Below, piece by piece: positions 27,830-38,645 of a DNA stretch of 64,000 nucleotides. Each line of letters opens with the position of its first letter. The first letter of the stretch is position 1. Source of the stretch: Giardia intestinalis. Taxonomy: Eukaryota. The stretch lies in NCBI GenBank assembly GCA_000002435.2, contig CM018792.1; one strand, given 5' to 3'. Made by a program: the position numbers and the translations under genes. The notes under the pieces are model-generated. The model worked only from the letters and a program-made list of their open reading frames with translations, had not been told where the DNA came from and ran no database searches.

Positions 27830-29650
27830 CTAGAAGAGCGATTTACTCCACCCGCTGGTTACTTCCAGTGCTCTTCCGGGCTGTGCTGCCGGCGGAACCC
27901 AGCAGCCCAGAGTAAACCCCTCATTTTCCTCACACGCTCCGGGACACCAGACTGCTCCATAGGCCGCCGGCCACGCTGGAGTGCCCCGAGGCGGCCCAGG
28001 AGAGTGCGTGTGCTGATAGCTTGTCCGCCAGACCCTCCTAGCAGCAGAGCGCCGTCGCGGCAGGAGAGCATGCCCCTTGCATCGGTCGGTCGGTTGCTGA
28101 GACCCCTGGTGCTCTGTCTGGAGCGGAGACTGCCCTGAGGGCCCTGTACGCTGCTCCCCTGCACCGACTGGCACAGCAGGGGGGCTGGATGCCGAGGGGC
28201 ACCTCCAGAGTCTCGGGTCTCTACAGGACAGGACACACGGCAGGGACATCTGCATGCGGGCCAGGAGTCCTGCTCGGCCCGTCCCTCGGCTGACGCCTTG
28301 GCCCCTCGGGAGCCCTGTCAGCACCACCGAAGGCAAGGACTCTCCAGGAGCGTTGGACTGGGCCCGCATGGAGTGGATGGCCCCACAGCCACTGCACGGG
28401 CCTCTCGGGCAGGGGGTCTCTCTGCCACTGCAATCTGTAGCAGCGTAAGGGTCGCCCCGTGTGCTGCCCTCTTGCCGTGGCGGGGCTTCAGGCATGCCAT
28501 CGGGACTGTCCGACGGTCACCGGTTGGGCCCTGTGTGACAGCAACAGACGAGAAGACTGTCCCACAACGACATGCCCTCGCTGGAGGACTGTCAGCAGGG
28601 CGGGGGAAGCTGTGGCCCACTGGGGGAGTGAACGATCTCAGTGGGTCCAGGCGCACTGCACTGCGGGCCCCGTCGGGCCGGTCTCTGACGGGCGCCGCGA
28701 TCACTCTGCCCGGTCTGGCAGATCACGAGGGGTCTGAGGCCGGTCTGTTGGGAGGAGAACCAGGGCCCTCGCTGATGGTCGAGCAGAGTCACCACAGGGG
28801 GGCATGAGCTCGAGTGAATGAGGGCCCTCTTAGCAGCGCGCATGTCAACCGAGCGAGGAGAACGACATGGCAGACACCAAAGGAGCCATGACCTCCTGAG
28901 CCCTCTGAGGTTTGTACTAGGCTCGCTGGGCTTATCAATCTCAGGCTCTGGTTCGCTCGAGTGAGCACTGCAAGGGTGAGAAGGGAACCTAAATGGAGAT
29001 AAGCCTCCACAAGTGGCGGACAGAGTATCTGTGATCGACACTTGCCACTGATGCTGTCTGGCAACTTGGCTTTGCAGAGGCCCATTGAGTAGGCACTCCA
29101 GGCAGTAACAACGCAATCAGCTAGCCACTGTCTTAGACTGCTCTTGGAGACCTGCAGCGAGGAAAGGCGAAGTCCCTAGAGCTTGTTGATGCAGTGCCAG
29201 AGCTTATGCTCTTCTTCGATGATCTGCTGAGGCTATCTCAAAGGTTCCAAGACTGTGGAGAGGGAAGCTTGATAGTAGGAATTCATAATCACTGCTGCTC
29301 AGGACCCCGTAGGCCCTCCTCTCCAGTCATGGCGAGCTGCTGGGCCCTGAGAACGTCGGAGGGCCTTGCCGATGTGCATGGGCGGTGGGCAAGAGGATCC
29401 CCAACGTATACAGTTCACAGGAGCTGTTTTACTACAGGCTGTCAGGCTTCTTCCCCGACATCACGAGATTTTTGAAGCAGAGGCCCGGCAGGAAGAGGGT
29501 GGTGATAAGATAGCCAGGTTTCCAGCAGTGCAACAGAGAAGACCCTTGCTCTATCAGCGACGACTCGCTTCTGTTTCCGGACACAATCGAGCATTGACTG
29601 AAGTTACTCACGGGATCCTTGGGGTGTGCTCGTAGGCAAGGGTCCTAGCA
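27830..29650. other. GC-rich island with no dominant ORF (about 1.8 kb)
   Basis: Sharp rise in GC. Only short overlapping Pro/Arg/Gly-rich ORFs in all six frames, as expected for random high-GC DNA. No ankyrin, VSP, kinase, reverse transcriptase or rRNA motifs found by eye. Confidence 0.5.
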
Positions 29651-30580: not shown

Positions 30581-30885
30581 CTGTTGATCGAGTTTGATGA
30601 TAGATCGGATTCCCCTCCAGCTGTGCAGCAAACAGACACCTCAATGAAGTGGTGGCTGTCAGTGGGGCACACAGCCACCCATTTCCTCAGAGGCCAGGGG
30701 AGCAGGCCTTCTCACCCTCGGTCAGCACTGCAATACTAGGGGTGGGTGAAACGGTCGCACAGGTGGTCTTCTCATCTCTTATGCAGAAGCCCTTCGTAAG
30801 CATTGGACCACTACAGATCTGTAGACACAAACCTCTGTGGAAACGGATCGTTTCCAAAACGGTAGATTACCAAAATAATACCAGG

Positions 30886-33131
30886 ATGGACACTTCCTCG
30901 TCTGAGCCTGCAACTGTGGCTCTCAGGGTCCCACTGTTCACCCCTAGGGAGCTTCATGAGCGGTTAGGTGATGGGCTTAATGAAAACACCATGGGGACAG
31001 TCTACTCTCTCAAGGGCTATCCAAACCTCGCTGTGCAGGAGATCCTCCTCGATGGCCTGGACAAGGGGGATCTGGACACCATCAGACTAGAGCTGGCCAC
31101 CCTTCTCGACCTCTCCCATCCGAGGGTCCTCAAGCACCACCAAGTAGTCGAGGACGAGGGCCTCATCTACGTCGTCACGGACCGGCACGACAGGACCCTC
31201 GAGCGCCTCCTCACCGAGCACAAACGAAGGAAGATCCCCGTGTCTGCCGGCGTGATCCTCTCCGTCATGAAACAGCTCGCCGCCGCCCTCGCCTATCTTC
31301 ATGGTCTCAGCGGGGTAGGTGCTAATGGGCTTGTCCACTGCGACCTCAGGCCTGCCAACGTCCTCATCAGCGCAGACGGGGAGCGCTTCGTCATCGCCGA
31401 CTTCGGCCTCTGCAGAAACACATTGTGGAGTGAGAGCACCATTGCAGGCATGGCAGTATACATGGCCCCCGAGATGCTCCTCCACAACGAGCCCAGCCCC
31501 GCCTCCGATGTGTGGAGCCTCGGGGTCATCCTCTACGAGATGGCCACTCTGAGGAGACCGGACTTCCTGAAAGGTAAAGACCCAAAAGACGTCTTCGTCG
31601 ACAGGTGGAGGCCGGACCTGAGCAGTGTCACCGATGGCTTCATAAAGAGTGTTCTGGAGAGGATATTCGTGCTGGAGCCAGAGGAAAGACTGACAGCCAG
31701 GGAGCTGCACGAGACGCTCACTGCGGCTGACATCCCAGTTGGTGAGCTGGGGGCTCAGTACGCGATGCTGAAGTACGAATGCGGATCCCTGAAGGCCGCT
31801 CTGAACAGTGCTAACGCTAGGATTGCTACTCTTGAGGCAGCCCTCGACGCCAGGTCTACTGAGATGGTGTCTCAGTCAACCGAGACTGCCTCTCTCAAGG
31901 ACGCACTTGAAGATCAGTGCAAGGAGCATCTGGCCATGATTAAGGCACTAGAGAATAGATTCACAGAATTTAGTGGTGGGATGAACACGAGTAGCTCCCA
32001 GATCAACCTCTCTGCGCTGCCTCAACTGATCCGTGCTGCACACACGAATAACATGGAGACTGTCCGGATGCTGGCTAACAAGAGGAACTACATCGGCCAG
32101 CGCGACGAGCAGGGGATGACGGCCCTCATGCACGCGGCCCAGCAGGGGCACATCGGTCCTGTCGAGCTGCTTGTTAGAAAAGAGAGGGGTCTCAAAGATA
32201 AGAGCGGTTGGACCGCGCTCATGCACGCTGCACACGGGAACCACCTTGAGGTAATTGAGATTCTCATCCCTTATGAACATAGGAAGAGGAGCAAGAATAA
32301 CCACACTGCCTTGATGATCGCCGTAAAAAAGGGCCACATAGAAGCTGCCTCCCTTCTAGTCTCATATGAGAAGAACCTGATCGACGACGAAGGCAAAACG
32401 GCCTTGGTGATTGCGGCAGAGGCAGGACATGAAGCTCTGATGGAGACCATCGACCCAACCGATGACAGGGGCGTCACGGCGCTCATGCGAGCCGTTGATA
32501 GAGGTGATATGGCAACAGCAAAAGCGCTTGTGGCTCTTCAACGAGGACGAGTGGCACATGGTGAGACGGCGCTAATGCAAGCAGTCACGTACGACAATAT
32601 AAATGGGATAAAATTATTACTGCCACATGAAAGCGGTATGCATGATAGATATGGTGCAACCGCCCTCATGAAAGCTGCCTATAAGGGTTACTTAGAGGCA
32701 GTAAAGTTATTAATAAAAAAGAAAGTGGGATGAAGGACAATTATAACAGGACTGCGCTCATGGAAGCGGCGGCTAGGAATCATTTGGAAATAGTTATAAT
32801 GTTAATAGAATATGAAGCATGCATGAGGGATAGCTTTGGGGAAACGGCCCTTATGAAGGCTGCTTCGAATGGTCATTTGGAGGTAGTTGAGCTGTTGATA
32901 GAATACGAAGCTGGTAAAAATGATGACTCTGGAGAAACAGCCCTTATGAAAGCCGCCCTCGGGGGCTATCTGAAGGTAGTCGAGCTGCTATTTGAAAGCG
33001 AGGGGTATCTAATAGACAAATCTGACAAATCCTTCTTTGGTAAGCTTGAGGCTAAGGGCTACTTTGAGATAGTATCTTTCCTTAGGGACAGCAGTAGAAC
33101 ATCTAGCACCGATGGCTACAGTTACTCTTAG
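30886..33131 (+). CDS. NEK-type kinase-ankyrin gene (NEK1 copy), split by a -1 frameshift in an A6 run at 32723-32728 (ORFs 30886-32733 and 32730-33131)
   Basis: Kinase subdomains present: HCDLRPANVLI, DFG and APE, followed by coiled coil and ankyrin repeats. Start placed at ATG 30886 by alignment with the paralogue at 60860 and the AT-rich taccaaaataataccaggATG. Adding one A in ttaataaaaaagaaagtgggATGaagg restores the expected ankyrin linker LLIKKESGMKD. Confidence 0.75.
31018..32074 (+). repeat. Segmental duplication / gene-conversion tract, copy A (pairs with 61001-62057)
   Basis: 31018-31077 identical to 61001-61060. A diverged 48-bp patch follows. Then 31126-32049 is identical to 61109-62032 (924 bp), with a single difference at 32050. 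Confidence 0.8.
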
Positions 33132-33930
33132 ATTACTTTACGGCTCACGAGTAAATCTGTCGTTCCCTCAAGAGAAGCAGAAGGCCCTGGAGAACAGGCT
33201 GGACTACGTCAGGGCCCACAAGGCCGTGGACGCAGGCCAGAGGGACGCAGACGGGAAGACGGCGCTCATGTGGGCCGCCGAGGCCGGGCACACCGCCGTC
33301 GCCCTGGAGCTGGTCGACGCAGAGGCGGGCCTGGTCTCGAACGACGGGTCCTTCGCGCTGATCGCGGCGGCAAAGAGGGGGAACCTCGAGCTGATCCAGG
33401 CCCTTTTCGAGAAGGAGGGGAGGCTGCGGGACGCCGGCAAGCTCTCCGCCCTCAACCACGCCTCCAGGGCGAAGCAGTTCGAGGCGGCCAAGGTCCTCCG
33501 GCTGAAGACCATCGAGACGATGGACGCGGCGATGCTGGAGCAGCTCCGGCAGAGGGTCGCGGCCACCTACACCGAGATGGCCAAGAAGTCGCAGCAGGCC
33601 GAGGTCAAGAGCCACAACATGGCCATCTTCCGCTCGTTCTTCGAGGCGTTCTACTCCCTCTCCTGCTCGGGGATCGACCAGGGGGCGGAGATCTCGGAGG
33701 AGCAACTGAACAAGTCCCTCGAGAAGTGCCTGGGCGAGATCCGCAAGCTCCTCAACTCGAAGAAGTACACGAAGTGCGTGAAGTGCCGCGCCAACGCCCC
33801 CAACCTGGTCTGCATGCCGTGCAAGCACTACGTCCTCTGCAAGGACTGCGGGAAGGACGTGGCCAGCGAGGTCTGTCCTGGTCTGCGAGAACCCCCTTGG
33901 CACACTAGTAGATCCTCAAGGTATCGCTAA
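33112..33930 (+). CDS. GC-rich ankyrin-repeat protein with coiled coil and a C-terminal RING-like (C3HC4-type) zinc finger that lacks its last Cys in frame
   Basis: Ankyrin repeats (DGKTALMWAAEAGHTAVALELV, FALIAAAKRGNLELIQAL). Finger: CVKCRANAPNLVCMPCKHYVLCKDCGKDVASEVCP-GLREPP. Composition switches to about 65% GC from ~33170. The start overlaps the end of the previous ORF by 20 nt in another frame. Confidence 0.55.
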   Translation: MATVTLRLLYGSRVNLSFPQEKQKALENRLDYVRAHKAVDAGQRDADGKTALMWAAEAGHTAVALELVDAEAGLVSNDGSFALIAAAKRGNLELIQALFEKEGRLRDAGKLSALNHASRAKQFEAAKVLRLKTIETMDAAMLEQLRQRVAATYTEMAKKSQQAEVKSHNMAIFRSFFEAFYSLSCSGIDQGAEISEEQLNKSLEKCLGEIRKLLNSKKYTKCVKCRANAPNLVCMPCKHYVLCKDCGKDVASEVCPGLREPPWHTSRSSRYR

Positions 33931-37889: not shown

Positions 37890-38645
37890 TCACTTCGACT
37901 GTCGACTGCCAACAAAGCTCCCAGTAAAGCTCCCAGCAAAGCTGCCAGTAAGGCTCACTCTGAGACGTGGTGTGCCGGTAGCAGATCCAGGAGTTGCAGG
38001 ACTGGTAGTTAATGACATAGCCCTCCCGAGCTTTGTGGTTGTACTGTGGGTAAACATAACGTTGATGGTGGAAAAGAATGCACGCAAGTCTTCCATTGCC
38101 TTTTGAGGCTCCTCAGTTTCACACTCCAACTCTACCATGCGGCCCGGCCTGGGCACAATGAATATGACGTTATCTAGTTCCAGGGTATGCTTTTTATACG
38201 TGTATCTGCGTCGCATAGTTGTAAAGGAAGCAATCTTCATAAGTGCTCCTTCAATCGCGTTGTCTAAAACCGTATGAAGGTCACATACATTGTTCTTGAA
38301 AAATGATAACACTCTTTCCCCTGTCGAATCGCCCATCAGAGCGCTATAGTCCTCTTTGGAGATGTGGACCTCCTCCTCTATTGCACGAAAGACTCCTGCA
38401 GCCGTGATGCTCGACTTTGCCTTCAAGGTGGCTGTGTAAGAAATGCTTGTCGCTGTCTTCAGTTCACGAAGACGCATGGATGCCTTCTGATGGGCCAGCT
38501 CGTGAGTTGCAGTGTCAAAGTAAGTGCTTGTTAGGGTCACCGAGCCTATATATTTTGCTTGTTTGTCTAGTTCCGTGAGGACTTGTGCGTACGAATTAGG
38601 GTCGCACAGCGTGAGTTTGATCTCCTGCTCAATATTGGACGGCAT
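37890..38645 (-). CDS. CYTH-domain protein (thiamine-triphosphatase-like triphosphate tunnel enzyme)
   Basis: N-terminal EIKLTL (ExExK signature) followed by YFDT, matching the eukaryotic ThTPase layout. The track start (38657) is a TTG; first ATG at 38645. Confidence 0.55.
   Translation of the reverse strand: MPSNIEQEIKLTLCDPNSYAQVLTELDKQAKYIGSVTLTSTYFDTATHELAHQKASMRLRELKTATSISYTATLKAKSSITAAGVFRAIEEEVHISKEDYSALMGDSTGERVLSFFKNNVCDLHTVLDNAIEGALMKIASFTTMRRRYTYKKHTLELDNVIFIVPRPGRMVELECETEEPQKAMEDLRAFFSTINVMFTHSTTTKLGRAMSLTTSPATPGSATGTPRLRVSLTGSFAGSFTGSFVGSRQSK

Follow-up and report, generated by a model that had tools for sequence, protein, structure and literature searches.

The gene GL50803_32958 of Giardia intestinalis WB clone C6 (ATCC 50803), which encodes an ankyrin-repeat Nek-GL4 pseudokinase, is split into two open reading frames at a run of six adenines where intact alleles have seven. 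We consider this most likely to be a real one-nucleotide deletion in the WB lineage that has very recently truncated, or pseudogenised, the gene. The window analysed here, a stretch of 64,000 nucleotides, is DNA from a chromosome 4 region of this isolate. In an exact-sequence look-up, neighbours downstream of the split gene matched exactly WB C6 proteins of the 2,761,001-bp chromosome (Table 1), and the gene itself was identified by matching its N-terminal sequence in Additional file 1 of Manning et al. 2011. In the part of Table S1 of that study that holds its row (PMC3218828), GL50803_32958 is entered as G102, GK127, Nek-GL4, with orthology class 'C' (complex) and the remarks 'Dead Nek - missing K72 (K72Q)' and 'N - multiple GiardiaDB', and is given 8 Ank repeats; that row bears no pseudogene flag, and the gene is also present in the GL4 alignment of the same study. 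The closest relatives of the repaired protein in a protein database search are all Giardia Neks.

At the site of the lesion, positions 32706-32736 of the window read GTTATTAAT-AAAAAA-GAAAGTGGGATGAAGG, with exactly six A in the run, a T before it and a G after it. The upstream frame (ORF1) closes with the codons TTA ATA AAA AAG AAA GTG GGA TGA, giving LLIKKKVG and a stop. It lies in the frame of position 30649 and has two plausible ATGs, at 30886 and at 30781, the upstream one (MQKPF...) being the start chosen by Manning et al. in the section of their supplement that covers this gene (PMC3218828). The ATG of the downstream frame (ORF2) overlaps the ORF1 stop as ATGA, its translation begins MKDNYNRTALMEAAARNH, and the peptides unique to it include TALMEAAAR and NHLEIVIMLIEYEACMR. 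Relative to ORF1 this frame is -1 (= +2). The initial annotation had correctly located both the splitting of a NEK-ankyrin gene at the A6 run and the end of ORF1 at 32733, but had given the downstream frame as +1.

Addition of one A to the run joins the two frames into a single 748-aa ORF from 30886, reading ...AVKLLIKKESGMKDNYNRTALM... and, across the junction, ...EAVKLLIKKESGMKDNYNRTALMEAA..., with LLIKKESGMKDNYNR as a junction-spanning stretch of the full-length repaired protein. The linker that this produces, LLIKKESGMKDNYNRTALM, matches the other inter-repeat linkers within the same protein (LLLPHESGMHDRYGATALM and others), in agreement with the earlier proposal that one inserted A recovers the canonical linker. 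Judged from the sequence, such a restoration by a single added base is far beyond chance.

Table 1. Features of the GL50803_32958 locus and of related genes, with coordinates in the window.
Feature	Coordinates	Strand	Remarks
Truncated Nek (ORF1)	30886..32733	+	Kinase-like domain, coiled-coil region and 7 TALM-ankyrin repeats; ends LLIKKKVG*
Protein-kinase domain	30958..31710	+	Pfam Pkinase PF00069, E=5.6e-34; residues 25-275 of the protein starting at 30886
Tract 100% identical to GL50803_9870	31124..32049	+	926 bp, inside GL50803_32958; flanks sharply diverged
XP_001709650.1, 'Protein kinase [Giardia lamblia ATCC 50803]'	31765..32733	+	322 aa; exact-sequence look-up; Met at 31765
A6 homopolymer	32715..32720	+	Where one nucleotide was lost; intact alleles have A7
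A_AAA_AAG heptamer (X_XXY_YYZ)	32715..32721	+	In the ORF1 frame (codon table); created by the deletion
ORF2	32730..33131	+	Last 133 codons, left out of frame, with 3-4 ankyrin repeats and the family-conserved tail ...LLFESEGYLIDKSDKSFFGKLEAKGYFEIVSFLRDS...
Premature TGA	32731..32733	+	In the ORF1 frame; conserved linker Met codon plus next base (ATGA)
GL50803_9870 (KAE8303743/XP_001709670)	60860..63445	+	Intact paralog, 861 aa, Nek-GL4, K72Q; conversion-tract partner
KAE8303730/XP_001709652	downstream neighbour		'Ankyrin repeat protein 2'; exact protein match
KAE8303731/XP_001709656	downstream neighbour		'Transducin'; exact protein match
KAE8303732/XP_001709657	downstream neighbour		Exact protein match

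The ankyrin array of the repaired protein matches Pfam Ank_2 with E=3.9e-68, and its repeats are divided by the lesion into 7 TALM repeats in ORF1 and 3-4 in ORF2, which on its own still matches Ank_2 (E=3e-26). The kinase domain lies wholly upstream of the lesion. In GL50803_32958 the catalytic Lys of the VAIK motif is replaced (LAVQEILL, K72Q), and the domain is predicted to be inactive already, apart from the frameshift.

In the database, the repaired protein is closest to an uninterrupted protein of 822 aa, with 86% identity and a colinear alignment over 100% of its length. The gene for that protein lies on contig AHGT01000047, at a locus fully syntenic with the one in WB, the flanking genes common to both being those for a hydrolase, an Ank-RING protein, a VSP fragment, a WD40 protein, a second hydrolase, an LSM protein and a CYTH protein. 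The parent assembly, AHGT00000000, is that of isolate DH, of sub-assemblage AII (PMC9618722). At the frameshift site DH reads TTAATAAAAAAAGAAAGTGGG, that is, A7, and a second, more divergent intact allele with a 755-aa gene, found on a metagenome contig from ENA (L007), has A7 as well. Because these two intact alleles agree, the ancestral state is A7 (AAA AAA GAA, K K E), from which WB has lost one A. Between 30886 and 33131, the coding sequences of WB and DH show no indel other than the single-base gap in the A run. Most plausibly, replication slippage in the WB lineage would have removed one A from the ancestral run, after which translation would proceed through ...LLIKKKVG and end at a stop 10 nt later. 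The predicted product would end short of the final 3-4 ankyrin repeats and of the C-terminal tail that the family conserves, with 133 codons left stranded in the -1 frame.

Miscounts between A6 and A7 are a classic artefact, and the run could in principle be an error of homopolymer sequencing or assembly over a WB gene that is truly A7 and intact. Homopolymer frameshifts from PacBio data did occur in the draft of the 2020 WB genome, where they were fixed with Illumina reads, an indel being corrected if half or more of a minimum of 10 reads contradicted it, for a total of 85 corrections (Xu et al. 2020, Sci Data 7:38). Those artefacts were likewise one-nucleotide differences in homopolymer length that truncated full-length genes, but they were PacBio errors that Illumina pile-ups removed, whereas the A6 run of GL50803_32958 is also found in a Sanger-era gene model and in Illumina-derived contigs. 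Several observations bear on the length of the run: (i) The RefSeq model XP_001709650.1, which dates from the Sanger era (2007), is encoded exactly by the window and has the premature TGA as its final codon. (ii) Among 5.8 billion proteins there is no intact WB version of GL50803_32958, the best WB match being a paralog at 67%, and it follows that the 2020 annotation, made on the Illumina-corrected reference, is also without an intact gene. (iii) The run is A6 in three of three Illumina-derived contigs from Logan run assemblies (SRR3602128, SRR3602118 and SRR10662859), all unbroken through the site, a count that is ascertainment-biased since the contigs were retrieved via the separately called ORF2 product, which returns frameshifted contigs only; from 32398 onward the three otherwise match the window exactly. 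(iv) As a control, the Logan contigs checked match the window at every other homopolymer of at least six bases that they cover. The Logan data thus establish that A6 recurs across independent read sets and have no bearing on whether A7 is absent elsewhere. Since the Sanger-era model, the Illumina-corrected reference and the three Logan assemblies agree, we judge A6 to be, with good probability, a genuine genomic allele rather than a sequencing artefact, and regard a miscall as highly improbable.

A true A6 could also be the majority allele among the roughly four genome copies of a Giardia cell, at least one copy retaining A7 so that full-length protein is still made. The retrieval of Logan contigs by the ORF2 product is blind to A7 contigs, the split ORF2 is found in only 3 Logan contigs as compared with 44 blocks for a neighbouring 481-aa gene, and the threshold of at least 50% read support that Xu et al. 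set for indels would render a minority allele invisible in the reference. On the other hand, the three Logan contigs cross the site without a break, and the protein collection searched holds no WB-like intact protein or fragment. Allelic heterozygosity in WB is, moreover, very low. We therefore find it unlikely that the strain still makes the full-length protein from a retained copy, though A7 may persist as a minority allele in some of the four genome copies or in some AI isolates.

The age of the deletion can be gauged from the stranded segment. In the 402 nt that follow the shift, 6 differences separate WB from DH, 5 of them non-synonymous and 1 synonymous. When these are polarised with the L007 allele, one of the six is WB-derived (TCT to TTT, S to F, non-synonymous), a number too small to separate neutrality from constraint, and the same 402 nt of WB contain no further stop or indel. 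With a single WB-derived substitution and no new stop or indel downstream, the frameshift is evolutionarily very recent. Of the two alternatives offered by the initial annotation, a miscall is contradicted by the RefSeq model, the corrected reference and the Logan contigs, and a genuine frameshift of recent date, in one of several redundant family members, is borne out by the ancestral A7, by the sole coding indel relative to DH, by the one WB-lineage substitution downstream and by the gene's place in the pseudogene-rich GL4 subfamily. The word pseudogenisation reaches further than this evidence, as a truncated protein of 615 or 650 aa, with 7 ankyrin repeats, could be made. Retained function would account equally well for the absence of further lesions downstream.

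The likely effect of the truncation can be judged from the relatives of the gene. The C-terminal tail (LLFEKEGHLIDKSD.SFF..LEAKGY.EI.SFLRDS) is kept in all close GL4 relatives and is in the wrong frame in WB, while two paralogs (P0008 and P0012) are naturally two repeats shorter at the position of the frameshift. Since the relatives vary in their number of repeats yet all keep the tail, the comparison argues that the truncation would entail at least a partial loss of function. GL50803_32958 is probably becoming, or has already become, a pseudogene in a redundant family of fast turnover, and its function may be lost or reduced. Judging by the two shorter paralogs, loss of some repeats need not abolish activity.

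If the truncated Nek were still a working scaffold, the split might instead amount to a gene fission, with ORF2 expressed alone, either from an AT-rich stretch or by reinitiation at the ATGA overlap. ORF2 is an intact ankyrin ORF of 133 codons with an ATG start, paralogs with fewer repeats exist, and the sequence TTATTAATAAAAAAG is located 6-20 nt upstream of the ORF2 ATG. Transcription in Giardia starts at short AT-rich elements near the ATG. The ORF2 ATG, however, simply encodes the Met that is conserved in the ESGM linker, and intact alleles contain this AT-rich linker too. Nor does an ORF2 protein appear in the 2007 or the 2020 annotation, and in all close GL4 relatives the C-terminal tail stays fused to the kinase. 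The row for GL50803_32958 in the portion of Manning Table S1 that includes it is without SAGE values (PMC3218828). We consider that two separately working products are unlikely. A scan for sigma-70 promoters and terminators, which are bacterial signals and irrelevant to a eukaryote, gave no matches.

The deletion has left an in-frame slippery heptamer, A_AAA_AAG, on which the initial annotation had not remarked. A ribosome slipping by -1 on this heptamer, or an RNA polymerase adding an A in the run, could yield a fraction of full-length protein and make of the locus a regulated gene with two products. The motif has the canonical X_XXY_YYZ form and is correctly placed in frame, no more than 10 nt separate it from the 0-frame stop, the downstream ORF has so far escaped damage, and the product of a -1 slip is exactly the ancestral protein (LLIKKESGMKD), the same as that of the repair by one A. 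The heptamer A_AAA_AAG is the known -1 frameshift site of E. coli dnaX, and programmed -1 sites of this kind have, as here, the identical heptamer in frame and a 0-frame stop shortly downstream. In GL50803_32958, in contrast to such sites, the heptamer arose as a side effect of the deletion, there is no signal of a downstream stem-loop or pseudoknot, and the arrangement is not conserved in orthologs. Loss of one A from ATA AAA AAA GAA creates the heptamer automatically, so that its presence is uninformative. Stimulatory structure is lacking, as the folding energies of the 70 nt and 120 nt downstream (MFE -8.9 and -18.7 kcal/mol) have z=0.46 and 0.05 relative to dinucleotide shuffles, under a model that does not treat pseudoknots explicitly. 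The two-frame split is not shared by the DH and L007 alleles, which are continuous with A7. A run of six A is short for transcriptional slippage, and slippage without stimulation seldom exceeds the per-cent range. Even for Giardiavirus the -1 frameshifting model is disputed, with +1/-2 favoured instead (PMC8230311).

Programmed -1 frameshifting is rejected as the main explanation on account of the lack of structure, the lack of conservation and the by-product nature of the heptamer, and a regulated two-product gene has, in our estimate, very little probability. It is just as doubtful that the deletion fortuitously made a low-efficiency recoding site, by ribosome slip or Pol II stutter, from which mostly truncated Nek and a little full-length protein would be produced. 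If true, such a site would explain the undamaged 133 codons and would amount to a cellular case of -1 frameshifting, seen at its very origin, in a deep-branching eukaryote.

The annotation of GL50803_32958 has changed with each treatment of the genome, the gene having been modelled in three ways: as a 322-aa 'Protein kinase' in 2007, in 2011 as a longer 'dead Nek' to which 8 Ank repeats were assigned, and with no protein in 2020. 'Kinase, NEK-frameshift' is a product name used in GiardiaDB and may apply to this gene. The exact-sequence look-up found the ORF1 products starting at 30886 and 30991 to be absent from the collection, and the ORF2 product likewise. In a GigaScience supplement (PMC6312909) the gene is a 322-residue 'Protein_kinase', modelled on ankyrin, and in the proteome supplement of PMC3877021 a search for '32958' gave only numeric coincidences. 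The old model is fragmentary, like the '30 fragmentary gene predictions' that Manning et al. extended. The relevance of the present result is mainly to annotation, in that the correct description of the locus is a Nek-GL4 pseudokinase gene with a WB-specific one-nucleotide deletion and an intact A7 ortholog in DH. The A6/A7 difference could also act as a simple indel marker between AI (WB) and AII (DH).

A further trace of family dynamics lies within the same gene. The 926-bp tract that GL50803_32958 shares without a mismatch with its intact paralog GL50803_9870, set between diverged flanks, bears the signature of gene conversion. The orthologs of WB and DH are 86% identical overall yet 97-99% identical around and after the frameshift because of this conversion tract. 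Manning et al. 2011 (Genome Biol 12:R66, PMC3218828) described 'rampant gene duplication and pseudogenization' in GL4, the subfamily that holds 29 of the 30 kinase pseudogenes of WB and several near-identical pairs. GL50803_32958 shares with those pseudogenes the subfamily, the type of lesion (a frameshift or stop in an otherwise homologous ORF) and the setting of strain-specific gain and loss among near-identical paralogs. It differs from them in that its lesion lies in the ankyrin array, outside the curated kinase domain, and is single and very young, with an intact A7 ortholog in DH. The truncation is thus a well-documented new instance of a known phenomenon in a high-turnover family; it opens no new biological question and is of low general interest. 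Together with the 926-bp conversion tract, the frameshift shows the birth-and-death dynamics of GL4 Neks cleanly and in a form that can be dated.

A stretch of 926 bp in the split Nek gene (GL50803_32958, a GL4 ankyrin-repeat pseudokinase) is 100% identical to its paralog 30 kb downstream, GL50803_9870, whereas identity in either flank is just ~80–90%. Both GL4 Neks carry the K72Q substitution. Judged from the sequence, the shared stretch corresponds to a sharp-edged gene conversion tract between these two genes.

The true start codon of this Nek family is ambiguous, because (i) the frame is open through 30649–30885, upstream of the MDTSSS methionine; (ii) this region is retained among paralogs; (iii) the resulting N-terminal extension is included in the annotated DH isolate ortholog (P0001) and in a relative from the protein search (P0009); and (iv) Manning et al. 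(2011) chose the MQKPF start at 30781 for the split Nek.

Several assemblies of public runs (Logan contigs) differ from the window. Contig L006, from SRR13990249, has two 1-nt deletions (GGG to GG and CCC to CC, at 38599 and 39592), neither of which falls inside a long homopolymer. One changes the 5′ end of a CYTH-domain gene on the minus strand, and the other breaks a TYW2/Trm5-like gene into pieces of 338 and 103 aa. These deletions are either real variants of the SRR13990249 line or assembly errors. The 5′ ends of two other contigs, L003 (1–148) and L004 (1–98), which correspond to 32343–32397 and upstream sequence, show 8 mismatches to the window in a 55-nt span, and beyond that zone they cannot be aligned to it. 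They resemble the intact allele in a metagenome contig (L007), and probably arose where the de Bruijn graph joined them to a paralog, not from real variation.

Features of the region and their coordinates.
Feature	Coordinates	Strand	Remarks
Conversion tract, 926 bp	31124–32049 (split Nek) and ~61107–62032 (GL50803_9870)		100% identity
AT-rich linker TTATTAATAAAAAAGAAAG	32708–32729		1–22 nt upstream of the ORF2 ATG
Ank-RING gene, KAE8303730, ARP-2	33112–33930		RING finger without last CxxC
VSP tail fragment, 147 codons	33938–34381		Immediately after KAE8303730; ends CRGKA, no N-terminus
Giant ORF, 1983 codons	54496–60496	+	C-terminal domain is VSP-type (E = 3e-21 to Pfam VSP)

In Giardia, short AT-rich initiator elements are sufficient for transcription initiation. 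The linker preceding ORF2, the downstream part of the split Nek, resembles such elements, and ORF2 could therefore in principle have its own transcript.

Elsewhere, two antisense ORFs (1997 and 1917 codons) mirror the giant VSP-type ORF. One of them has a weak compositional Pfam match and nothing more; both are probably codon-composition artefacts of a cysteine-rich VSP/HCMP-like gene. A separate GC-rich stretch (27830–29650) is dense with ORFs that overlap one another, on either strand and in many frames. Here identity to DH falls to 93–97%, with an alignment break at 28692–28767, and the DH annotation has only short genes without Pfam matches.

The Ank-RING protein KAE8303730 ends in ...VCPGLREPPWHTSRSSRYR, while its paralogs end in ...VCPACNKPVEEFMEVFK. 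The DH ortholog and another WB copy share this truncated RING ending, which marks it as an old repeated unit.
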